IMG/VR virus record: IMGVR_UViG_3300006105_000061 | Location: 1 to 33,853 of that record | Source: a virus | Taxonomy: Duplodnaviria; Caudoviricetes | Length of the DNA stretch: 33,853 nt | Strand: one strand, 5' to 3' | Notes under the pieces: model-generated | The model's database searches: none | Told to the model about the DNA's origin: nothing | Seen by the model: the letters and a program-made list of their open reading frames with translations, nothing else | Made by a program: the position numbers and the translations under genes | In this document: piece after piece, positions 2,174 to 30,211 of the stretch | Numbering within the stretch: position 1 is the first letter of the stretch | Layout of the letters: each line of letters starts with the position of its first letter

Positions 2174-2466
2174 TCCCTACGATAGACAATATAGAAATAG
2201 GCACTCTTACATCTCTGGCACCAGACAAGTACCTAGTTAAAATATATCCAGATGTTTTTGGAATGGCATTTTATCCACCACTAAGCACGGATTTTTTAAA
2301 AGAAAAAATACAACAACCATTAAAGCAATGGTGTGACGAATGTTTCTCTAACGATTATTCATTAAATTTTAGATTCAACAGCGGCGATCCATATTGGTCG
2401 CTGCTTTTTAGTAGCAGTGAAGATGTTAATATCTTTATGCTACGTTTTGGTTCAAATAAACATTAA
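2170..2466 (+). CDS. Hypothetical phage protein, 98 aa
   Basis: ATGA-coupled to the upstream small ORF; no function recognised. Confidence 0.65.
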   Translation: MIPTIDNIEIGTLTSLAPDKYLVKIYPDVFGMAFYPPLSTDFLKEKIQQPLKQWCDECFSNDYSLNFRFNSGDPYWSLLFSSSEDVNIFMLRFGSNKH

Positions 2467-3067
2467 TATTACTCAACTCATAATTTTGAATATCCAATTC
2501 AACTGGCAGATCAATGCCTAGTTTTTTACATAATTCAATATTATCATACATCATTTCTGATGGATTGTCTTTTACAAATTTTCTCAAATCTGCATTTTGT
2601 TTATCAATGTGAAAACTCATTTCTCGTAAGTTCTTATAATATCCACTGTAACTTGGATAAGTTATACCAAAGTGTCCACAACGGACCCACCAGCCCAAAC
2701 ACGCATCGTTGTCACGTTCAACACATATAATTGGGCAATCTGGCCAAGTCTTGCGAATAAAATCAAGATGATGGCAAAACACGTGACTCTTAATGATGCG
2801 AACTCCTTCACCACTAAATGGACGATCAAATTCCTCTTCTAATTCTTGCTTGCTCATATAAGGCATAAGGTGAAGTTTGTCACCAAACTCCATACATGGG
2901 TCAAAATATGCGCCAAGATGCATAAGCTGATTGTTACCGCTAGCATCGTGATAGTAAGTTCTGCTATCGCTATAATCACTATTATCTAACGAAGGGGAGT
3001 AGTATATGTTTTTTACTACACTACTCCACTTAGAACCTGGCGCACCAGCAACAAATATATATTTCAA
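2435..3067 (-). CDS. Sulfotransferase-like P-loop protein
   Basis: IFVAGAPGSKWS (5'-PSB-like loop, lacks GKT), RIIKSH, IICVERD resembling sulfotransferase KxH and 3'-PB RxP/D motifs; last gene of the ATGA-coupled operon containing the APS kinase. Confidence 0.55.
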   Translation of the reverse strand: MKYIFVAGAPGSKWSSVVKNIYYSPSLDNSDYSDSRTYYHDASGNNQLMHLGAYFDPCMEFGDKLHLMPYMSKQELEEEFDRPFSGEGVRIIKSHVFCHHLDFIRKTWPDCPIICVERDNDACLGWWVRCGHFGITYPSYSGYYKNLREMSFHIDKQNADLRKFVKDNPSEMMYDNIELCKKLGIDLPVELDIQNYELSNINVYLNQNVA

Positions 3068-3435
3068 CCTAAACCCATTTCTTTGCGAATCTGAGTTGCA
3101 CTAATCTTTAATATTTCCTTATCAAAATCTTCTTTGTCAATTGTATAACCAACATCACGACCATAGGTTATGTTGACGATATTAGGAACCAAATTTACAA
3201 GAAAATCTCGATTAAATTTAAAACCTTCTGCTTCTAAATCTTTAATAATACGTTCTTTTACAAACGCATAATCAAATGGATTCTTTTCATCACTGCCACC
3301 AGTGTCACGAACCATGATCATGACTTGACCTGTTTTTGCATGTGCTCGCTTAAACAGTTCAGTATGACCAGGATGCCATGGCTGATAGCGTCCAAGTAAT
3401 TGCACAGTCGGTGCTTGATTATTCCATTTTGTCAT
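3064..3435 (-). CDS. HxGH nucleotidyltransferase (cytidyltransferase-like), possible minimal ATP sulfurylase
   Basis: GRYQPWHPGH, NPF..ER, YGRDVGY, ISATQIR (SxTxIR) motifs. Confidence 0.8.
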   Translation of the reverse strand: MTKWNNQAPTVQLLGRYQPWHPGHTELFKRAHAKTGQVMIMVRDTGGSDEKNPFDYAFVKERIIKDLEAEGFKFNRDFLVNLVPNIVNITYGRDVGYTIDKEDFDKEILKISATQIRKEMGLG

Positions 3436-3905
3436 GAGTGTTTCAATCCTTTAAACATTGCTTTAATCCAACTTGGGTTTGTGTCAAAATCAAGTTCTTC
3501 CATAATATACTTTGACCAGAATAGGGCATCTTGTGTGTCTACACGGAAGTAATAACTACCTGGTTCTGGGTTTACAAACAACTTATTTGTGTCCTCAAAC
3601 CGGCCTTCTTTAATGGTGTCAACCCAAATAACAGTAGCAGGCCCAAAGGCTGCACGAGTGGCTGGTGTGGGACAAACAAAATCGGCTATCACCCATGAAC
3701 CTGCTGCCGTAACTTGGTCGCATAGCCAACCCATTCGTCTGGCTTGCTCTATACGATCCGCTTCACTGAACCCAAGATGACTGTTAATATTTGCACGAAC
3801 AGCATCTGCGTTCCAATGAACTGCTTTTAATTTTGGTGCTAAGGCTTTTGCCAAGGTGGTTTTACCCGACCCTGGCAAGCCCATTATGAGTATTTTCTTA
3901 TTCAT
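3432..3905 (-). CDS. cysC: Adenylylsulfate (APS) kinase, CysC family
   Basis: GLPGSGKTT P-loop, NADAVR, LGFSEADR, DFVCP; the lid region is shorter than in cellular CysC. Confidence 0.8.
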   Translation of the reverse strand: MNKKILIMGLPGSGKTTLAKALAPKLKAVHWNADAVRANINSHLGFSEADRIEQARRMGWLCDQVTAAGSWVIADFVCPTPATRAAFGPATVIWVDTIKEGRFEDTNKLFVNPEPGSYYFRVDTQDALFWSKYIMEELDFDTNPSWIKAMFKGLKHS

Positions 3906-5335
3906 CGGGTCACTTTACTCACCAGATAACTTGCAGCACCGCTGCCAAGTGTCTGAATGATTACTCCAAGTGCTATAATCTGTGGACCGCCACCAAAGAA
4001 TTGTCCATAAACAAACACAGGTGCACCGATAAACAATCCTACAAAACCACCAGCAAGGAATCCATAACGTGTTAGCAGATCACCGCCAAGTAGTGCAAGA
4101 ACGATTGGTACAAAGAATGTTAGCGTAAGAGTTTTACCAAACACGAAGATTTGATTTAAATCAAGACCTGGTATATTGGCAAGAGCAATACCAAGAATAG
4201 CCAATCCAATCATGCCAAACTTGCCCCATACAACTGCATTAGAGCCACCTACACTGTCATGAACATCATTGCCTACTAAGTTGGCACTGCTCAATAGTTG
4301 CGTGTCAATAATTGATACAAGACCAGCAAATACAACTGCAAGATAAACAAGTGGTAACCACCATCCTACAACATTGGCCATTACGATAAGATTGATAAAA
4401 CCAGTGTTTGGACCAGTAACGTTGTAGTGCAGACCAGCGGCAGTTAAACCAATTAGACCACCTACGATTGGTAATATCAACCAATAGAACGGTGCTGCAA
4501 TGAATGCACCACGAACATAATCACTCTTCATACTAAATGCATTTTGATAATTTGAATTGTCACTCCATGGTGAAGCAAGATGTCCAAATACCGTTGGAAT
4601 ACCAAAGCCAAATAGCAAGCCAAGTGTAAGCGGGGTATCCCATAGCGTTACACCTTGTCCTGTAACGCCGCCGATGCCAGCAAGTGCTGGTGCAAATCCA
4701 ACAGTTCCAAAGATACTCACGGCTACAATGATCATACCAATCCAAATAGCAACAATCTTCACCATATCAGTTCCGATTGTAGCCTTTAGACCACCACGCC
4801 AACTATATGTAATAGCAATAGCAACAAGAAGTGCACTTACAAGAAGTGGACTTAAACCTGTTAATAGCGCAACACTTTTACTACCAGCAAATATGTTAAT
4901 AGTAATACCTTGAAGTGCATACAGTGCGGTTTGAACTAGCACACATGCCTGAACTAACTTGCCATACTTACTACGGAACCATTGACTCAATGTGAATCCC
5001 TGTCCATACCGCTCTCGCAACCTAAAGATTGCAAATGAGAATAAAATAAGAGCGAAGAAATTTCCCAAACTAAACCAGAAAACTCCTACAATACCATTAT
5101 TAAATCCTTGTTGTGCGGCAACAAACAAACCAGGTGCCCAAATCCAACTAGCACCAACACTCATACTTCCTTGCCAAAAACCTACATTGCGATTAGCAAC
5201 AAAAAATGCTTCTTTACCCATACCATATCCACGTGCAAACCAACTGGTAAGCGCAAATGCGAATAGGGCATAAAGACCAATCATGACCAAACCAGTCGCT
5301 GGGTCAAAGAGTGGAAAAATTTTACTTACATCCAT
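3902..5335 (-). CDS. Sodium:solute symporter (SSS) family transporter
   Basis: 477 aa with about 13 hydrophobic helices; FFVANRNV, SWIWAP, YSWRGGLKATIGTD, SIIDT motifs. Confidence 0.85.
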   Translation of the reverse strand: MDVSKIFPLFDPATGLVMIGLYALFAFALTSWFARGYGMGKEAFFVANRNVGFWQGSMSVGASWIWAPGLFVAAQQGFNNGIVGVFWFSLGNFFALILFSFAIFRLRERYGQGFTLSQWFRSKYGKLVQACVLVQTALYALQGITINIFAGSKSVALLTGLSPLLVSALLVAIAITYSWRGGLKATIGTDMVKIVAIWIGMIIVAVSIFGTVGFAPALAGIGGVTGQGVTLWDTPLTLGLLFGFGIPTVFGHLASPWSDNSNYQNAFSMKSDYVRGAFIAAPFYWLILPIVGGLIGLTAAGLHYNVTGPNTGFINLIVMANVVGWWLPLVYLAVVFAGLVSIIDTQLLSSANLVGNDVHDSVGGSNAVVWGKFGMIGLAILGIALANIPGLDLNQIFVFGKTLTLTFFVPIVLALLGGDLLTRYGFLAGGFVGLFIGAPVFVYGQFFGGGPQIIALGVIIQTLGSGAASYLVSKVTR

Positions 5336-5345
5336 TTTAATTTCC

Positions 5346-6077
5346 TTATAATTTAACTACTAAATTTTTACTTGCACCACCGAGAACATCATTTGTTCTT
5401 TGGGTAACATATCCTGTAATCTGTAACATAGGACGGTCCCACCAACCCATATTAGCGGTGGCATGTGGCATATCTTGCCATTCCCAAGTAATGCAATCAC
5501 CTGCTCGCCATTGAGTAAAGTTAGCATTGCCTAATTGAAATACTTGACCTATTTCCCAATCTGCTAACATAATAGCAAATCTACGCATAATATCTGGATT
5601 CTTATCCATCTCTGTTACTTTGAAACTATTTTCACGTTCAGGTCTGGCAGCAAAGTTGTCAATGTGAGTATGCAGCATCTGTCCCGTAGTTTGGTTATGA
5701 AATTTAATCATGCTTTCATCCATACCAAGCCAGTTGCTTACCTGTTGAAATATCTCAACATCTTCTGCTGCCGTGCGATTAAAAACTTCTTGGTCAGGGT
5801 TGGCTCCTGCACGAATCAAATCTTGTTCTTCTGCGGTTGCACTATACAAACCTTTATCCGCAATATCTTTGTTAAAGTTATTACGTGTTCCCCAACTACT
5901 AGCTTTTGTGCGAGGCATACACTCACGAATCGCATCTGTAAAATCTGCATCAAATCTGCAAACATGAGTGTAACTGTCTACGCCAGATTGCGGTGGTCGT
6001 TTAGTATCAAAATGCCAACGGCTGCGGCTTTTAGTAAATTCCCAACGACTATCGCCCCAATTTTCATATTCTGTCAT
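5346..6077 (-). CDS. 2OG-Fe(II)-dependent oxygenase (double-stranded beta-helix fold)
   Basis: HxD (HID), distal His (MPHATAN) and Arg (DRPMLQITG). Confidence 0.7.
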   Translation of the reverse strand: MTEYENWGDSRWEFTKSRSRWHFDTKRPPQSGVDSYTHVCRFDADFTDAIRECMPRTKASSWGTRNNFNKDIADKGLYSATAEEQDLIRAGANPDQEVFNRTAAEDVEIFQQVSNWLGMDESMIKFHNQTTGQMLHTHIDNFAARPERENSFKVTEMDKNPDIMRRFAIMLADWEIGQVFQLGNANFTQWRAGDCITWEWQDMPHATANMGWWDRPMLQITGYVTQRTNDVLGGASKNLVVKL

Positions 6078-6164
6078 AAATTTTTTTCCTAAGTTAATTT
6101 TTTTCTAAGATAAATAATTTTATAAAGATATTTATAAAAAAATTTAAAAAGTAGGAAAAAATCT
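6078..6164. promoter_or_regulatory. Divergent AT-rich control region with two late promoter cores and two AGGA RBSs
   Basis: TAAATA on + at 6111-6116; TATAAATA on - at 6129-6136; AGGAAAAA before both start codons. Confidence 0.55.
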
Positions 6165-6902
6165 GTGAATAGAAAAATTTATAACTTTTTATATAAAAAT
6201 TTGCATGATGCGTTTAATTTACCAAAGTATGATGATTTTAATAAAACTATGACACAGTATACTATTGTTAATGCGCTACCGTGGACTCCTAAACGTTGGG
6301 AAAAATTCTGCGAACAAATCAATAATGAATTTGATTTAGAGATTAACTTCAATGGAACCATTGCAGATATAACACACGATATTGATCAAAAATATTGTGC
6401 ACGTTTTTGGGGCGGTATCTGGCAACCTCGTACCGAAATTTATCAATATACTGGATGGAATATTGTAGAACTTATTAACAAAGCAAATCCAAAAGCAGTA
6501 CTAGATGTTGGTTGTGGGTTTAATCCATTCAAGGCACGTATTCCTAATTTAGTTGGTATTGATGCATATAACAACAGTGCTGATTACATGGTTGATATTC
6601 TTGATTATAATGTTCCAAATAATTTCTATGATCATGTAATTGTGTTTGGTAGTATAAATTTTGGTGAATATGATGACATTGAAGTTCGTATGAAAAAAGT
6701 AATTGACTTAACTATGCCTGATGGTAAAATTTATGTTCGTGCAAATCCTGGTTATGTTCATAAAAATGGTCAATGGATTGATATCTATCCATGGGATTTT
6801 GATACTGCTTATAGGATTGCAAACAAATTTAAGTGTGAATTAAGTTCTTTTAAGAAAGATAACGGTGATAGACTTTACTTTGAGTTAAGAAAATTGCCAT
6901 GA
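6165..6902 (+). CDS. Class I SAM-dependent methyltransferase with small N-terminal helical domain
   Basis: VLDVGCG motif I, GIDAY, YDHVIVFGSINF; GTG start after AGGA. Confidence 0.8.
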   Translation: MNRKIYNFLYKNLHDAFNLPKYDDFNKTMTQYTIVNALPWTPKRWEKFCEQINNEFDLEINFNGTIADITHDIDQKYCARFWGGIWQPRTEIYQYTGWNIVELINKANPKAVLDVGCGFNPFKARIPNLVGIDAYNNSADYMVDILDYNVPNNFYDHVIVFGSINFGEYDDIEVRMKKVIDLTMPDGKIYVRANPGYVHKNGQWIDIYPWDFDTAYRIANKFKCELSSFKKDNGDRLYFELRKLP

Positions 6903-7537
6903 AGATGTTAATTGTTATTGGTCCACAAGGCAGTGGTAATCATTTATTTGGTAAAATATTTTCACTTCATGATGCGGTTCATGGTTGGAAAGCAGCACTG
7001 GAACCAGATGGATATTTTATTCCGCATTGGTATGAACCATTCAATGAGTATTGGAATGACCCAAGTAAAATTACCGTGGATATAATGGGTGGTAAAGAGT
7101 ATGCCGTTACTAGCGTAAGCAATCCTTATATGGAAAATTTTACGGCAAGAGTTCCAAAGTTAGAAGAATTTGTCGCAGCACTAGCGGCAGTAGGTATTGA
7201 AAGTGAACTTGCTATTATTGGTCGTGATCGTAATATCCTAGACCTACAACAACGTAGATTACGTGGTGGTCCAACTTGGGGCATGATGCAAATTATGTTG
7301 AATAGATTAGAAGAACCACCGCTATTCATTAGTCAGGAATTACTTTATCTATATCGCCAACATTATGTTCGTAGTCTTGGCAAGTTGTTAGATTTTCCCG
7401 TTGCATGGAACGATCCACGCATTGAAGAAATTCTAAGTGAAGATGCCAACGCAAAATATATTCAACCATGTGAACCTACTGCACTAGATGCACATGTAAA
7501 AAATTTTATTAAACCCTCTTGGTTAAAAACACAATAG
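6899..7537 (+). CDS. Sulfotransferase-like P-loop protein
   Basis: LIVIGPQGSGNHLF (5'-PSB-like), IIGRDRNI, ISQELL (YEDL-like), LGKLLDFP; ATGA-coupled to the methyltransferase. Confidence 0.55.
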   Translation: MKMLIVIGPQGSGNHLFGKIFSLHDAVHGWKAALEPDGYFIPHWYEPFNEYWNDPSKITVDIMGGKEYAVTSVSNPYMENFTARVPKLEEFVAALAAVGIESELAIIGRDRNILDLQQRRLRGGPTWGMMQIMLNRLEEPPLFISQELLYLYRQHYVRSLGKLLDFPVAWNDPRIEEILSEDANAKYIQPCEPTALDAHVKNFIKPSWLKTQ

Positions 7538-12570: not shown

Positions 12571-13761
12571 TTAAATTAAATTAGGAAAAGTAACACCCCA
12601 ATTAATAAGGACTGCACCTTGTCCACCATTAGCCGAAGCAGTTCCGCCTTGTCCGCCTCCTCCGCCGTAAATACCACCGGCACCGGCAGTACTGCCAGTT
12701 GCAGCAGTGTTGCCTGTTTGTCCTCCTGAACCACCGCCTCCGCCACTATTTACGGTACCACCACTGCCGTTTAACCCTATTCCATTTATACCAACTCCGC
12801 CGCCTCCTCCCGAACCACTTGCGCTGCTGGCACCACCACCAGCACCGCCACCTACACCAGAGGTAGCCGCAATAGTTGCATTACCGCCATTTCCTCCATT
12901 TCCCGTGTAACCAGCAGCACCGCCGCCACCACTGGATTGGATATTAGAATTTCCACCAACTCCACCGCCGTATGTGCCGTAAGCGGTGCTTGGCCAACTT
13001 CGTCCACCTGCGCCAATACCAAGTGAGTTTCCAATACTTCCTCCACCGCCACCTTCTGCCATACATAAAACATTTGCTGCAGTCATAATTTGCGAGGCAT
13101 AAGTTCCACCAATAGAAACTGTCCAAGAAGTTCCGCTTCCACTTACTATAGTTCCAAGATAAACTTGTCCACTATTCACAGTTGATCCAGAAAATATAGA
13201 TGTTCCAACAGTAAAAGATTGAGAAATAGATGTTGTTAAAGTTGTTCCACTACACGATGCCGTAAAAGTTGTAACTGAAGATAATGGTGCAACATAACTA
13301 CATCCTCCAGCACCTCCATTACCTACTCCTACACCACCAAGTCCTACATAGACGGTGTAGGCGGTGCCAGGTGTTACAGTAACGTTATTTACCCAAGCAA
13401 ATCCGCCGCCACCACCAGCATAGTTAAAAGTTGTAGCACGTCCACCGCCACCACCACCGATAGTAGCTATATTAATGGATGTAATAGGATTAGGAATTAC
13501 AACAGTGCTGTTAGCAGTATATTGTCTATAACTTATAGCAGTCTCATCAAATATTCCAGATATTTGCATATTACCATTTGGATATAATCGTTGAGCAACA
13601 CTACCACCGTATATAGTATATTCGTCAAATATGCCAGATATTTGCATATTACCATTTGGATATAATCGTTGAGCAACACTACTACCACGTATAGTATATT
13701 CGTCAAACCCACCGGCAACTTGTAGATTGCCACCTTTAATTAATTTAGAAGCTAGTGCCAT
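12571..13761 (-). CDS. Glycine-rich adhesin/receptor-binding-like protein
   Basis: N-terminal 26-aa repeats, then poly-Gly domain (IGGGGGG...GGGGGFAW...GGQGAVLINW). Confidence 0.7.
   Translation of the reverse strand: MALASKLIKGGNLQVAGGFDEYTIRGSSVAQRLYPNGNMQISGIFDEYTIYGGSVAQRLYPNGNMQISGIFDETAISYRQYTANSTVVIPNPITSINIATIGGGGGGRATTFNYAGGGGGFAWVNNVTVTPGTAYTVYVGLGGVGVGNGGAGGCSYVAPLSSVTTFTASCSGTTLTTSISQSFTVGTSIFSGSTVNSGQVYLGTIVSGSGTSWTVSIGGTYASQIMTAANVLCMAEGGGGGSIGNSLGIGAGGRSWPSTAYGTYGGGVGGNSNIQSSGGGGAAGYTGNGGNGGNATIAATSGVGGGAGGGASSASGSGGGGGVGINGIGLNGSGGTVNSGGGGGSGGQTGNTAATGSTAGAGGIYGGGGGQGGTASANGGQGAVLINWGVTFPNLI
13547..13708. repeat. 78-bp tandem repeat (two near-identical copies plus a degenerate third toward 13755)
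   Basis: tcaaa anchors at 13547, 13625 and 13703; encodes FDEYTI..SVAQRLYPNGNMQISGI. Confidence 0.9.
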
Positions 13762-25067: not shown

Positions 25068-25619
25068 TTAACCTATGGTATTAATATCTTGATTTGCAGC
25101 AACTGCAGAAAATACCATAACTGAACCACTTGAAAGTGGTGTTATAATGTCCGCATTGTTGGCGCAAACTAATACACCACCAGCATTTAATTGTCCACCA
25201 CTATAAAGATTACAATCAACAGTTGGTATATAACATTTTCCTGTCGCAGTTCCATATACTTGACCCGCAACTAAACCATGAACTTCATGGATAACTTGAT
25301 AATTTGGGTCAGTTGGTATCACGCAAACATATGAACTATTATCCTCTAACGCAGTAATAGTGAATGTATCAGTTGCGATGTTTCCTGTGAATGGCCAAAC
25401 CGTTCCAGTTTCACCTACTTGTGCTGATATATCTGTATCAGGAAAATTACTTATAAATTTACCATTTGTTACATAATGTCTACGAGCATAGGTGTCTGGA
25501 TTTAACCCAACTTTATTAAGTTTTCTAGTAATATAATCACCAGCACTTGTATAAACAGTTGTGTTTACTCTAAACTTTAAATCTGCAAAAGAATGTGGTT
25601 CGCCTATTTGTACAGTCAT
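25068..25619 (-). CDS. Hypothetical protein, 183 aa (beta-rich)
   Basis: 4-nt overlap with the upstream gene; no family recognised. Confidence 0.6.
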   Translation of the reverse strand: MTVQIGEPHSFADLKFRVNTTVYTSAGDYITRKLNKVGLNPDTYARRHYVTNGKFISNFPDTDISAQVGETGTVWPFTGNIATDTFTITALEDNSSYVCVIPTDPNYQVIHEVHGLVAGQVYGTATGKCYIPTVDCNLYSGGQLNAGGVLVCANNADIITPLSSGSVMVFSAVAANQDINTIG

Positions 25620-25963
25620 TTTACCACAATATCAGTTAAACTATTTGGCATTGGAACTTCAGTTGGAGTAATATTGGCAATAGCAAATTCTCGTGTAGTT
25701 CCAACCATATCTTGGAAATCAATAACCTTACCAGTATTTGCCGCATGTGTTTCTTGTGCATCTTGGTTGAGTGCAGTTGATAGACCCATTTTTGCAATTT
25801 CAACTATAATTTCATCTGCAGTTTTATCAAGAAATTGATGAGGTTGAAAACTATAAACTGGATATTCATCAACCGTGTTTTTACTATCATCTGTTGCAAA
25901 TGATACAAGTAAATTATGATTATCGTCATATCCAACAATTTTAAGATGAAGTTTCTCTGCCAT
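25616..25963 (-). CDS. Hypothetical acidic protein, 115 aa, possible fibre assembly/adaptor
   Basis: AAGG RBS; TAAATA at 25980-25985; follows the adhesin genes; function from context only. Confidence 0.6.
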   Translation of the reverse strand: MAEKLHLKIVGYDDNHNLLVSFATDDSKNTVDEYPVYSFQPHQFLDKTADEIIVEIAKMGLSTALNQDAQETHAANTGKVIDFQDMVGTTREFAIANITPTEVPMPNSLTDIVVK

Positions 25964-25982: not shown

Positions 25983-26837
25983 TTATGTCCATGTGAACTT
26001 GATTCTACCGCTTGCACCGTTTCCACCAGCCTGATCTTGGGGTGCACCAGTACCGGCTGCCCCAACTGTATAATTTACAACCGTACCAGAAGATATAGCG
26101 CCATAACTGCTATAGTATATATTAGCATAGGCTCCACTGCCACCACCACCGCCACCTGCTTGATTTGGATTTTTAGATTGATGGTCACTATATCCACCAC
26201 CTCCACCACCCGCACCAGGTGCGCCACCAGTTCCACCCACACTATTACTACCCGCAGAACCACCAGTTCCACCATTTGGTGCACTTCCGCCAGCGCCGCC
26301 TGCGTTTCCACCTGCGTTTCCACCGCCGCCTGCATTTCCTGTTGTTTTGGTTAGTACGGATGCGTTTGCAACTGTACCGCTTGCAGTACCACCTGCACCT
26401 CCACCGCCACTTTGAGTACCATTACGATTTCCACCAGTTCCACCAGTGCCGCCATTTACAGTGACTCCAAGAACTGATGAAGAGGTTCCACTGCTTCCAT
26501 TAAACGTGCCATCATGGTTACCACTACCACCACCGCCACCACCTCCCCATATTTCAATCTGTAGTGTATTGCGATAAAGTGGTATGGTAAAGGTACCACT
26601 ACCAACAGTATCAACAGTAGTTGTTCCAGTAGTTGCAGGATCAGTTGGTTGTTTACCATAAAAGTTAGCAACGTCTAAGCGTGCTGTTGCACCACTTGGA
26701 AAGGTTCCTGTGGTAAGATTTCCACTATAATACCAAGTTACACCACGATATACACCAAGATTATCACCAAGTGCAAAACCAGTATTGATTTCACTTATTG
26801 CTAATGAATTACCCCATGGTTTAATTGGACCTGTCAT
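25983..26837 (-). CDS. Intact poly-glycine adhesin (gp38-like architecture)
   Basis: N-terminal ISEIN...FYGK attachment-type domain, IEIWGGGGGGG, Gly runs, ends GRIKFTWT. Confidence 0.7.
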   Translation of the reverse strand: MTGPIKPWGNSLAISEINTGFALGDNLGVYRGVTWYYSGNLTTGTFPSGATARLDVANFYGKQPTDPATTGTTTVDTVGSGTFTIPLYRNTLQIEIWGGGGGGGSGNHDGTFNGSSGTSSSVLGVTVNGGTGGTGGNRNGTQSGGGGAGGTASGTVANASVLTKTTGNAGGGGNAGGNAGGAGGSAPNGGTGGSAGSNSVGGTGGAPGAGGGGGGYSDHQSKNPNQAGGGGGGSGAYANIYYSSYGAISSGTVVNYTVGAAGTGAPQDQAGGNGASGRIKFTWT

Positions 26838-26843
26838 AGTTCA

Positions 26844-27188
26844 TTAACTCCAAGTAATCTTTATTCCACCACTAGTGCCGTTGCTTGTACCAGCCGCACC
26901 AATTATATAGGCAATTACGTTGCCTTGTGGTATTTGACCAGGTCCGTATGTAATTTTAACATAACCGCCAGCACCACCCGATCCGCCTGTTGCACTGCCA
27001 TAGGAATTACTTGCACTGCTTCCGCCACCACCTATACCAACATTAGCATTATTTGCACTGGTATTTTGTGCAGTAGAACCGTTCGTACCACTATTTCCAT
27101 TTAAAAATACAAATACGGTTGGATTTGCAATGCTTGGATTGGCATTTGCACCAATTGTTCCACCACTTCCACCGTTACCGTTTGACAT
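26844..27188 (-). CDS. C-terminal half of a split poly-Gly adhesin
   Basis: Aligns by eye with the C-half of 25983..26837 (GGGSGAYANI/GGAGGYVKI; YTVGAAGT/YIIGAAGT; GRIKFTWT/GGIKITWS); AAGGA RBS. Confidence 0.75.
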   Translation of the reverse strand: MSNGNGGSGGTIGANANPSIANPTVFVFLNGNSGTNGSTAQNTSANNANVGIGGGGSSASNSYGSATGGSGGAGGYVKITYGPGQIPQGNVIAYIIGAAGTSNGTSGGIKITWS

Positions 27189-27191
27189 AAT

Positions 27192-28355
27192 TTAATCCTT
27201 AATCATCCAAGTATCATAATTAAAATCATCTTCTCTTGGTCCGCCTACCACTGCATATCCATTAGCGGTATATGTATGACTGCCGTCAACGATCAAATTA
27301 AACAAAGGGGTATCATTTGCATAGGTTAATTTTTCTGCAGTGACTAATCTTTTACCACCATTTACTGTTTGTAATTCTATACCTAATTCTAATTTATTAA
27401 GTCTATCCAACTCAAATCCTAAATTAAAATATTCAATTTCTTTGCCTGTTTGGTCTAAAACAGGTAACCATTTATTCCAAGATTTTTTCTGTCTTTCAGG
27501 ATTAAAACTATAAAACTTTTTATCAGAAGAAACATGCATATGGTCTTCAGTTGTTAAATGTTCATCATTTACCATATACATGTATCTATTACCAATAAAT
27601 GTATGACGCAATAGCAAAACAGTGTTTATTTCACCAAATGCACCCATAACCCTGTCACCAACTTTTATTTGTTCAATTGATTTATAAGTTCTATCATACA
27701 TCATAACAGGAGTACCAGCAACAAAACAAGTAGACGGTTCTGAACTTGGTGCAGGATCACCAACTTGAACTGATACCGTACCAACTCCACCCCAACTAAC
27801 CGTTCCAGTAACAACACCGTTTACAGATGTAACAGTCTGTCCTTGAATGCCATAGGCACCACCTACATAACTGATACTTTCTACTGTTTCTCGTCCTCCG
27901 CTGCCACTTGTAGCTGTATCTAATGGTGGAGGAGGAACAGGAATAGAGCCAGAGCCACCACCAGCACCACCCCCAGTAATGACACCCAATGCACTGCTAT
28001 CACCACCTTTGCCACCACCACCGCCATTACCACTGCCACCGCCGCCACCTGCGCCCCATATCTCTATGGTAATACTATTGCGATATAGCGGAACAGAAAA
28101 ACTACCACTGACATTTGCAAAATATGCGCCGCCGCTAGCAGGGTCAGTTGCACGTTTTCCATAAAAATCACTTATTTTTATTGAGTTTACACCGCTGCTG
28201 AAATAACCAAAAGTAAGATTTCCATCATAATACCATTTAACACCGTGATATTGCGTGAGGTCTGCACCCAACCCCCACTCTGCATTTATAGATGCTAAAT
28301 CAAGAGGACCGCTAAAAGGTAGTGCATTGCCTGCGACGCCTGCTACAGATGGCAT
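27192..28355 (-). CDS. N-terminal half of a split poly-Gly adhesin fused to a C-terminal Hint domain
   Basis: Residues 1-137 paralogous to 25983..26837; Hint starts at Cys210 (CFVAGT, codon 27726-27728), block B TEDH, block F FNLIVDGSHTYTANG; no terminal His-Asn. Confidence 0.8.
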   Translation of the reverse strand: MPSVAGVAGNALPFSGPLDLASINAEWGLGADLTQYHGVKWYYDGNLTFGYFSSGVNSIKISDFYGKRATDPASGGAYFANVSGSFSVPLYRNSITIEIWGAGGGGGSGNGGGGGKGGDSSALGVITGGGAGGGSGSIPVPPPPLDTATSGSGGRETVESISYVGGAYGIQGQTVTSVNGVVTGTVSWGGVGTVSVQVGDPAPSSEPSTCFVAGTPVMMYDRTYKSIEQIKVGDRVMGAFGEINTVLLLRHTFIGNRYMYMVNDEHLTTEDHMHVSSDKKFYSFNPERQKKSWNKWLPVLDQTGKEIEYFNLGFELDRLNKLELGIELQTVNGGKRLVTAEKLTYANDTPLFNLIVDGSHTYTANGYAVVGGPREDDFNYDTWMIKD

Positions 28356-28357
28356 TG

Positions 28358-30211
28358 TTAACTACCTCTTGCTTTTAATGCCTCAACCTCTGCACTAAGT
28401 TCTTTGATTGCTTCAATTAGCAGCGGTATAATCTTGTCATATTGCACTGTTAAATAATGCTCACCACTCTTACTACTGCCATCTGGCGCAATATCAAACG
28501 GTGCTTGTCGCACTACTTGTGGAAGAACACTTTGAACTTCCTGTGCTAACACACCAGCATGTTCGCTACTATCACCAATACCAAATTGAGTAGCAATATC
28601 ATTCCAATTATATATAACACCACTAATTTGCTTGACCTTATCCAAAGCCTGTGGTATAGTAGCAATATTAGTTTTTAATCTTGCATCAGATGCAAATGCC
28701 GTGATATCACCAGTTGCGGTAATACCACCAGTAACTGCTAAGTTTGCACCATTAAATGTTATACTTGAATTACCAGTAATATAACTTGCGTTTGAATAGA
28801 TACCTACTTGACCAGCACTTGCAGTAGCACCAACTGGAATAAAAATAGTTTGCCAACTTAGATTACCATTGCCATCTGTTTGTAACCATTGACTCGCCGT
28901 TCCACCACTTATTTGCACATTTCCAACAGTACCAAGGCTTAATTTATAAGAACTAGTTGGGTTAAATGTTACGCTACCACCAGTAAAACCAGCAGCACCA
29001 CTTACTTGCAATCCAGTTAATGTACCAATACTTGTAATTGCATTTTGTGCTGCAGTTGTAATGGTTCCTGTTAGATAAGCACCGCTGTTACCAATAGTTC
29101 CAGCATTTACATAACTTGCATAAACATTACCGCCAACTGCACTTAGATTAGCAACTGTGACATTTCCACTAAATGTATTTTGTGATCCACCAGTATTAAT
29201 GTTACCACCAATACCAATACCACCTACTACTTGCATCGCACCACTTGTTGTATTATAACTTGCAGCAACGCCACTGATAAGTGCATTTTCATTACTTGTT
29301 ACAACGTCAAGGTTACCAGCAACAATTAAGTTTCCATATACTTTAACATCCGCATTGGCAAGTACGTCTATTGCATTTACTGTGCCACCACTACTATTAC
29401 GAGTTACTAATCTGATTGGACCATTATTTGTAATGTTTTCAATTAAAAATTGATTACTGTAGATATCTAACTGACCAGTTGCACTACCAGTTCCTACTAG
29501 TAGACCGCTGTTATTTGTAATCTGTAGCGTACCAGCAGTACTTGTATTCTGGTCTGCTCGCATAAAGTTAGCGGCAGTAACGCTGCCAAGAGCATCAGCA
29601 TTAGTAGCAGTTCCCACAAAACGGTTGTTAGAAACGAAAGCAGTACTTGCGATATTTAAACCAGGATAGATGCCAGGTGATGTAAAACCACTGATACCTG
29701 GACTTGGTGTAAAAAATTGGTCTTTACTTAAAATAGCATAGCGAGTATTACTGATTTTAAAAGAAATAACATTATGACTTCCAGCACCAGTATCGGTAAG
29801 AACTTCACTTGCAACCTGACCAGCGCCGCCTATTGGTCCAATGATAACCCATGCAGTGCCATTATAACAGTTAAGTTGTTGGTTTACGGTATCAAACCAT
29901 AGATCACCCAAAACAGGATTAAGTGGTTGATTATTACTTGCAGTTGCTGCGTTGATATTTTTGAACACACTGCCAGTATATACTTTCAGAACCGCATGTG
30001 TGCTATCATACCAAATTTGTCCAGTGATTGGACTAACTGGCTGTGAACTATTTGCATAGTTTTCAAGCATATTAAGGAAATTTTGATCTAGGTACTGACC
30101 ATAGTTTGGTGTATTTTTTCCAACAAGCGTAATGCTTGTGCTGTTATTAATGGTACCATCCGCAATAACAATAGCATTTGCACCGTTTGCATGGGTAATC
30201 GTATAACTCAT
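28358..30211 (-). CDS. Tail fibre with C-terminal Peptidase S74 intramolecular chaperone
   Basis: SDARLKTNI...GVLAQEV...P..V...YDKIIPLLIEAIKEL (28358-28690); N-terminal LVGKN..NYG...NFL.MLEN.A...P..P..GQIWYD anchor. Confidence 0.85.
   Translation of the reverse strand: MSYTITHANGANAIVIADGTINNSTSITLVGKNTPNYGQYLDQNFLNMLENYANSSQPVSPITGQIWYDSTHAVLKVYTGSVFKNINAATASNNQPLNPVLGDLWFDTVNQQLNCYNGTAWVIIGPIGGAGQVASEVLTDTGAGSHNVISFKISNTRYAILSKDQFFTPSPGISGFTSPGIYPGLNIASTAFVSNNRFVGTATNADALGSVTAANFMRADQNTSTAGTLQITNNSGLLVGTGSATGQLDIYSNQFLIENITNNGPIRLVTRNSSGGTVNAIDVLANADVKVYGNLIVAGNLDVVTSNENALISGVAASYNTTSGAMQVVGGIGIGGNINTGGSQNTFSGNVTVANLSAVGGNVYASYVNAGTIGNSGAYLTGTITTAAQNAITSIGTLTGLQVSGAAGFTGGSVTFNPTSSYKLSLGTVGNVQISGGTASQWLQTDGNGNLSWQTIFIPVGATASAGQVGIYSNASYITGNSSITFNGANLAVTGGITATGDITAFASDARLKTNIATIPQALDKVKQISGVIYNWNDIATQFGIGDSSEHAGVLAQEVQSVLPQVVRQAPFDIAPDGSSKSGEHYLTVQYDKIIPLLIEAIKELSAEVEALKARGS

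Follow-up and report, generated by a model that had tools for sequence, protein, structure and literature searches.

Among described phage proteins, the closest counterparts of the adhesin considered here are two glycine-rich fibre proteins. The fibre protein gp24 of cyanophage Pam3 (7YPX) is reported to be a single chain, trimerised by an N-terminal helical bundle, in which the strands of a β-sandwich like that of tumour necrosis factor (TNF) extend into glycine-rich loops, the distal loops being hypervariable and recognising the host (PMC9608196). The gp38 adhesins of T-even phages (e.g., S16 gp38; PF05268), encoded after the long fibre gene, are described as monomers with a β-helix and short closed loops, whose glycine-rich motifs have been suggested to be recombination hotspots that shuffle hypervariable segments (PMC12032242). 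Here we report on the IMG/VR virus record IMGVR_UViG_3300006105_000061 (Duplodnaviria; Caudoviricetes), whose whole stretch of 33,853 nucleotides (nt) is called the window, and in which a putative glycine-rich adhesin is divided between two genes, the N-half and the C-half, beside an intact single-chain paralogue, with a Hint domain at the end of the N-half.

For the Hint domain, the described relatives are the bacterial intein-like (BIL) domains and the Hog domain of Hedgehog. An N-to-S shift at the first cysteine (Cys1) is established Hint chemistry (PMC4031507), and type B BILs, which lack block G, are reported to cleave without splicing (PMC4031507, PMC7765530). BILs such as those of C. 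thermocellum (2LWY) and Tetrahymena (BIL2, 6TMM) are described as having the Hint fold, Cys1 and block B, and as lying in hypervariable regions of non-conserved proteins. The Hog domain (1AT0) is a C-terminal Hint without the terminal Asn, followed by a conserved extension, the sterol recognition region.

A sequence-only reading of the window had proposed that the two halves rebuild the fold of the intact neighbour, and that the Hint domain joins them as a one-shot ligase through Ser2 of the C-half, with non-covalent assembly as an option. We find the split adhesin to be a real and conserved feature, the striking part of which is the exchangeable open tip and an uncharacterised Hint clade, more than a ligase. 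The explanation we favour, and consider probable, is a non-covalent heterodimeric adhesin with an exchangeable tip, whose Hint domain likely removes itself. A literature search over titles and the openings of abstracts, with most subscription journals outside its scope, returned no description of a split glycine-rich adhesin or of this Asn-less Hint clade.

A predicted glycine-rich fold over two genes

The three open reading frames (ORFs), all on the minus strand, lie where the sequence-only reading had placed them (Table 1). The TAA stop codon of the N-half (27192-27194) is followed by 3 nt and then by the in-frame ATG of the C-half at 27188, which has its own AAGGA ribosome-binding site (RBS), also as described before. 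The stop is real: contigs assembled from X5 and X6, two runs not counted among the possible sources, span it and show 0 differences, and a diverged relative, locus L001, keeps both the TAA and the 3 nt, with no sense codon in its place. That the halves rebuild the intact neighbour holds in pairwise comparison for the N-half (48% over 96 amino acids (aa), E 1e-21), but only weakly for the C-half (37% over 120 aa, with E 4.3 once composition is adjusted for), whose match is not significant because of its glycine content; BLASTP of C-half-type sequences was defeated by composition. Compared with its counterpart in the paralogue, the C-half is short by about 28 aa, and the correspondence rests on motifs at the ends and on a co-fold prediction.

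In this co-fold, residues 1-209 of the N-half with the C-half reached a score of 0.80, versus 0.00 for the best control, with a partner pLDDT (predicted local distance difference test) of at least 85 and with contacts agreeing by at least 97% between runs; of known pairs, 116 of 157 solved ones reached this mark, as did 2 of 215 mismatched ones. The Hint domain was not part of the folded complex, and residues 142-209, which have no confident placement, are absent from the named interface. In the model, N-half residues 74-141 form the interface with the C-half, and strand pairing joins residues 95-98 of the N-half to 78-81 and 109-113 of the C-half, so that the β-sandwich would be shared by both halves; the predicted interface also takes in C-half residues 1-13, close to the core of the N-half. 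The halves are predicted to complete one β-sandwich and one glycine-rich lattice, as had been proposed, their binding being supported, though not shown, by the model, which the option of non-covalent assembly also fits.

The intact paralogue gave an AlphaFold2 model of pLDDT 67, with part of the glycine-rich region below 50. Its top fold match among 48,161 chains is Pam3 gp24 (7ypx; Z 12.8, root-mean-square deviation 2.6, 155 aligned residues, 32% identity), the match starting at residue 70, followed by a tail-tip chain of Bxb1 (9d93_Qa, Z 9.5) and then by a match of Z 6.2. S16 gp38 is absent among the 50 fold matches listed, kinship with it being still possible. A sequence search of solved structures with the paralogue's profile gave 0 matches, and the GP38 profile of Pfam matches none of the window's three proteins; the fold search points to gp24. 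The Pfam family Gly_rich_2 (PF21722) scores 16.5 bits on the paralogue, versus a cut-off of 24.3, and matches neither half; an intact homologue, P0020, scores 37.7 bits.

With gp24, the window adhesin shares the TNF-like β-sandwich with a glycine-rich loop lattice, as seen in the fold match and the shared strands, and a variable distal tip. There are also differences. First, the gp24 domain lies on a single chain, whereas here it is spread over two genes, and is so in 28 loci. Second, the N-terminal domain is a different one. Third, the window adhesin has an open-ended, exchangeable tail.

The loci were gathered with the Hint domain, an N-half alignment and a C-half alignment, the metagenome scan covering 50 of 64 parts, and the counts comprise loci with a detected C-half. 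A C-half preceded by an N-half was found at 61 loci, 27 of them non-redundant; L045, a Hint-less locus first missed on account of the start motif pattern, brings them to 28 and is included in the trees, the identity comparison and the synteny. L039, identical to the window over the tail and the C-half, was counted with the window, and P0003, P0005 and P0007 stand outside the locus counts because their pairing with C-halves is not demonstrable from DNA. The Hint domain is absent from 25 of the 28 loci and present in three, namely the window and L001, which carry the Asn-less clade described below, and L063, which carries another clade ending in His-Asn-Lys. Comparison of these sequences shows that the split does not depend on the Hint domain. 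Both halves are under purifying selection, the ratio of nonsynonymous to synonymous substitution rates (dN/dS) being 0.17-0.22 in two comparisons for each half (0.17 for N-half aa 11-137 versus L001; 0.20-0.22 for the C-half). A dN/dS of about 0.2 and 43 stand-alone protein clusters suggest that the C-half behaves as a translated gene, in line with the earlier expectation. One N-half (L016:2998-4098, P0011 type) has about 160 added residues between the putative attachment domain and the core.

Exchange of the tail

Where the Hint domain is absent, 57-79 aa of the N-half come after the last glycine motif, first a proline stalk (IPVPPPP-type) and then a variable peptide. Over 378 pairs, the median DNA identity is 0.50 for this tail versus 0.68 for the core and 0.69 for the C-half. 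The variable tail of L014 (2992-3588) has eight cysteines, unlike every other tail.

Between the window and L001, 754 of 785 bases are identical from 27971 to 27184, versus 288 of 375 and 255 of 335 on the flanks, and the synonymous divergence (dS) is 0.83 and 0.96 on the flanks versus 0.03-0.08 inside; by part, the identity is 0.73 in the core, 0.94 in the tail and 0.74 in the C-half. The borders of this cassette lie in the last glycine motif, as would befit the hotspots suggested for gp38, and at the stop, RBS and start. Other pairs carry alike tails on diverged cores (L017/L019, core 0.72, tail 0.99; L016/L041 and L018/L020 likewise) or unrelated tails between alike flanks (L006/L011, core 0.93, tail 0.48, C-half 0.91; L017/L018, core 0.90, tail 0.49, C-half 0.94), and the window and L040 have one or both flanks in common, with unrelated tails. 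These alignments show that tails move between phages as DNA cassettes.

The Hint domain sits where Hint-less tails end, and thus an N-half cut at Cys210 would be 209 aa long, in the range of 193-217 aa seen in most N-halves that lack a Hint. Its GC content is 31%, versus 43-47% in the surrounding sequence. In trees of the core, made without L016, Hint-bearing cores are sister to Hint-less ones with strong support (the window with L005, 96/90; P0003 with L020, 98/96; P0007 with L041, 98/87). Related tails also occur with and without a Hint domain, P0004 scoring 64 against L049 and 62 against L041 (shuffled 99th percentile 51), and P0007 scoring 85 against L005 (null 65). The simplest reading of the trees is that the Hint domain was gained repeatedly.

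The Hint domain and the fate of a possible thioester

The window's Hint domain has, as previously noted, Cys1 and TxxH but no His-Asn: Cys210 follows Thr209, block B holds T269-x-x-H272, Asn353 stands at what would be the F:4 position, and the end reads YAVVGG, with Val370-Gly371(-Gly372) in place of the intein His-Asn. It scores 39.3 bits with Pfam Hom_end_hint (cut-off 32.1). The model has a pLDDT of 95.6, and of 95-97 over the 16-aa appendage that follows the fold; its fold matches are BIL2 (Z 18.3), the gp41-1 intein (16.2), a BIL (15.4) and the Hedgehog Hint (14.6), with intein ends aligning at model residue 170, i.e., aa 371. The domain shares Cys1 and block B TxxH in a Hint fold with class 1 inteins, but it does not have their His-Asn followed by Cys, Ser or Thr at +1 in cis. 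The arrangement of a naturally split intein is not found either, as the entire Hint fold lies in the N-half ORF and the C-half has no Hint match. As in type B BILs, the intein motifs lack block G and lie in a hypervariable region; the score with Hint_2, which we take to stand for type B BILs, is 16.6 bits, below the cut-off of 28.4. Judged by its motifs, the domain is neither an intein nor a split intein but like a type B BIL, and it looks competent for N-terminal cleavage.

The Asn-less clade to which it belongs is widespread, with representatives of 104 clusters at E up to 1e-30. Cys1 is kept in 131 of 144 full-length relatives (with 11 gaps), H272 in 134, N244 and N263 in all 144, H360 in 140, and D377, F378, Y380 and W383 of the appendage in 133-139, and His-Asn is replaced, mostly by Thr-Gly-Trp. 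Residue -1 varies (Pro 36, Ser 34, Gly 17, Thr 16, Ala 13, others), as does the cargo. In 38 non-redundant viral loci, many of them from giant-virus assemblies, the Hint ends at most 14 aa from the C-terminus in 36, on unrelated cargo, and the C-half described here occurs in none. A tail-like motif precedes the Hint in 1 of 149 unrelated proteins, and cultured phages gave no Hint relative above 29% identity over most of its length. The dN/dS within the Hint is 0.45, which, with few changes, is little informative. Unlike the BILs, the clade is a separate one in sequence, on viral proteins, and has a conserved acidic-aromatic appendage. Like the Hog domain, it is a C-terminal Asn-less Hint with a conserved extension, which however measures 16 aa, unlike the sterol recognition region, and the cargo is a phage fibre tail.

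The same clade ends a family of proteins of about 340 aa in giant-virus-like contigs (L079-L115, some of which are labelled giant-virus assemblies), and thus the module is common to phages and giant viruses. It often follows CxCxC cysteine ladders in fibre-like proteins (L078, L118, L122, L123; P0179, P0182, P0206), and L107, L113 and L116 hold tandem glycine-rich paralogues with one common N-terminus, several of which have an Asn-less Hint end (two in L116). A second Hint clade, which keeps His-Asn and continues with Lys-Pro-Ile, is found on tails of the same adhesin family (L063:1390-2403, P0005, P0007), so that the tails of the split adhesins carry two unrelated Hint clades. In L100 (2105-3579), an unrelated Gly_rich_2 fibre is split at the same Asn-less Hint, about 9 residues separating the last glycine motif from Cys1, and its partner ORF starts with Met-Ala and overlaps the stop. 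The window itself encodes a further intact Gly_rich_2 protein (12571-13761, 25.9 bits), with a two-copy repeat at its N-terminus, which is related to the N-part of the L100 protein (E 1e-7).

We favour the following mechanism. The adhesin would be a glycine-rich fibre protein of phages in a long-established two-gene version, and its two products would fold into one non-covalent heterodimer by strand complementation. Its N-terminal domain would dock on the S74-matured fibre, and the heterodimer, judged by gene position and fold, would likely act as the receptor-binding tip. The break would open a distal loop into a free end on a proline stalk, displaying a variable peptide of 55-80 aa; the distal position is suggested by gp24 and gp38, which bear host-binding loops there. 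Relatives exchange this tail as a DNA cassette, on which the Hint would be an optional passenger. An N-to-S shift at Cys210 would give a thioester, resolved most simply by water, with the Hint released and a 209-aa N-half left. Covalent joining to the C-half would be unnecessary, and the Hint is unlikely to be the glue of the halves because most relatives lack it.

Several points weigh against this mechanism. The halves of a split gene may pass the co-fold by likeness to solved single-chain glycine-rich fibres, and the co-fold relied on alignments made within this analysis. The paralogue model is of moderate quality, so that it is motif order and analogy that place the break at the distal tip. 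Some tail matches fail the shuffle (L063, 67 versus 67; P0005, 70 versus 74), and recombination weakens the trees, an ancestral Hint insertion followed by losses being possible. The strong conservation of the appendage suggests that the Hint does more than hydrolyse, and L100 shows that Hint domains and split fibres meet repeatedly.

A tentative and somewhat doubtful proposal takes up the appendage. The split adhesin gene would form an open display port out of the receptor-binding loop, and the appendage would be a miniature of the adduct-recognition region of Hedgehog, coupling the tip covalently to a host-surface group, to a small molecule or, in short-tailed cases like L100, to the partner half. 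Unlikely, in our estimate, is the related explanation of the Hint as a Hedgehog-like conjugating module, in which the appendage recruits an outside nucleophile (a small molecule, a sugar, a lipid or a lysine of a host or virion protein) that becomes attached to Thr209 at the fibre tip of the heterodimer. Conjugation would be consistent with the conservation of Cys1, H272, N244, N263 and the appendage across the 144 relatives while His-Asn was lost, and with the predicted order of the appendage, which could however be merely structural at 16 aa. The clade caps many unrelated viral proteins, but cargo and residue -1 vary widely, and most relatives of the adhesin have no Hint at all. For BIL2, the closest match in fold, joining of its N-terminal cargo to lysines of other proteins has been reported (PMC8616854).

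The ligation put forward by the sequence-only reading, in which the N-terminus of the C-half (the Ser2 side chain or the α-amine) attacks the Hint thioester to give one chain with a 72-aa loop, is not supported by these data, and we regard it as very unlikely, although the α-amine route might operate in the minority of loci with a Hint. Residue 2 is Ser or Thr in all three Hint-bearing loci, but also in 18 of the 25 Hint-less ones, and therefore the former carries no signal. Every C-half has a small residue 2 that permits removal of Met (Ser 14, Thr 7 and Ala 7 in the 28 loci; Ser 24, Thr 11, Ala 7 and Pro 1 in 43 protein clusters), but other fibre genes of the window also begin with MS, MT, MA or MP. 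Type A BILs are proposed to splice through aminolysis by a free α-amine (PMC4031507), and the start of the C-half is predicted to lie near the N-half core; however, the +1 position is filled in cis by the appendage, which would be unreleasable without Asn, so that a serine acting in trans would have to compete with it. L100 is the best natural candidate for ligation, with a short distance from the break to the same Hint and an overlapping downstream start, yet its partner begins with Ala. The co-occurrence of the split, an Asn-less Hint and Ser, Cys or Thr at residue 2 of the C-half, which ligation had led one to expect, fails. The Hint is missing from most split loci, residue 2 is Ala in 7 of 28, the clade that keeps His-Asn occupies the same place, and the C-half is found in 0 of the 38 other loci of the Asn-less clade, of which 18 have a close next ORF, with Ser or Thr at residue 2 in 3.

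Finally, it is barely credible that one protein arises by read-through, frameshift or RNA splicing, or that the stop is an assembly error or the gene a decayed one: although the C-half is in frame 3 nt past the stop in the window and in L001, the gap between the half genes measures between -1 and 55 nt, with every frame represented (13, 5 and 9 of 27 loci), GGA-type sites precede the C-half start in related loci (by eye), the TAA recurs in independent contigs, selection maintains both halves, and a search for longer proteins gave, as weak evidence, no fused form among 8000 scored candidates of 245-2000 aa, the one hit being an unrelated Gly_rich_2/Fn3 protein. Read-through and frameshift were rejected on the variation in frame and gap; a search for an intron or structured RNA at the break gave two Rfam matches, far below threshold.

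Gene neighbourhood and meaning

The window corresponds to the structural part of a T4-like tailed phage genome, with tail sheath stabiliser, virion proteins and fibres (Pfam, PHROGs), and the runs that contain at least half of the stretch are freshwater metagenomes (8 rows, four of them possible sources and the other four of one year, which may be one campaign). The coordinates of the features are collected in Table 1.

Table 1. Features of the split-adhesin locus, in window coordinates
Feature	Position	Strand	Basis
Tail fibre, 617 aa, with C-terminal Peptidase_S74 chaperone	28358..30211	-	Pfam S74 61.5 bits; PHROGs tail-fibre matches
N-half gene, 387 aa: putative attachment domain, half of glycine-rich core, variable tail, Hint	27192..28355	-	
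N-terminal domain, aa 11-70 of N-half, common to intact paralogue and gp38-type adhesin genes of related loci	28146..28325	-	
N-half of β-sandwich and glycine-rich core, aa 74-137	27945..28136	-	predicted interface, dN/dS
Proline-rich stalk and hypervariable tail, aa 138-209 (I138-T209), 72 aa	27729..27944	-	
Hint fold, Cys210-Gly371	27243..27728	-	model and fold comparison
Conserved 16-aa appendage after Hint fold, aa 372-387, C-extein position	27195..27242	-	
Exchanged DNA cassette: last glycine motif, tail, Hint, stop, RBS	27184..27971	-	alignment to L001
AAGGA RBS of C-half, within final codons of N-half gene	27196..27200	-	
C-half gene, 114 aa: remaining glycine-rich core and strands completing the β-sandwich	26844..27188	-	
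Intact single-chain paralogue, 284 aa, in the variable second adhesin slot	25983..26837	-	fold match Pam3 gp24

The S74 tail fibre is likely the carrier of the adhesins. In 25 of the 28 loci, the gene immediately upstream has an S74-type fibre end, no upstream ORF having been recovered in the remaining 3, and in this the locus resembles that of gp38. The profile of the N-terminal domain matches the gene after the C-half in 25 loci, which, sorted by eye, comprise 7 of the intact-paralogue type and 18 gp38-like ones; in L001, this gene scores 33.4 bits with Pfam GP38 (cut-off 25). The N-terminal domain, recurring in second-slot genes, is thus a shared module, also of true GP38-family genes, that likely serves to dock these proteins on the fibre, and two alternative tips are probably retained in the phage. 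The intact paralogue, presented before as standing beside the split pair, does so in the window but is not a fixed partner, being found in the second adhesin slot of just 7 of 28 loci. In L013 and L049, a second S74-type fibre gene follows the C-half instead of a second adhesin.

Two small ORFs of 115 and 183 aa, with no Pfam or PHROG match, follow the adhesins (25068-25963); L001 has ORFs of similar place and size, and they are possibly fibre-assembly helpers. Farther away (2435-7537) lie host-like metabolic genes, which by eye we take to encode a nucleotidyltransferase-like and a kinase-like protein, a multi-pass solute transporter and a methyltransferase-like protein.

If the favoured explanation is true, phages would have a further way to diversify host recognition, via a two-chain scaffold with a free end. 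Whereas gp38 and gp24 vary short closed loops, such a free end, of 55-80 aa with or without a Hint, would take up long peptides, and even an entire protein domain, by cassette exchange. Naturally occurring pairs that share a scaffold but differ in tail, or that share a tail and differ in having a Hint, make the roles of tail and Hint directly testable, and the Asn-less viral Hint clade could be a compact self-cleaving or conjugating tag.

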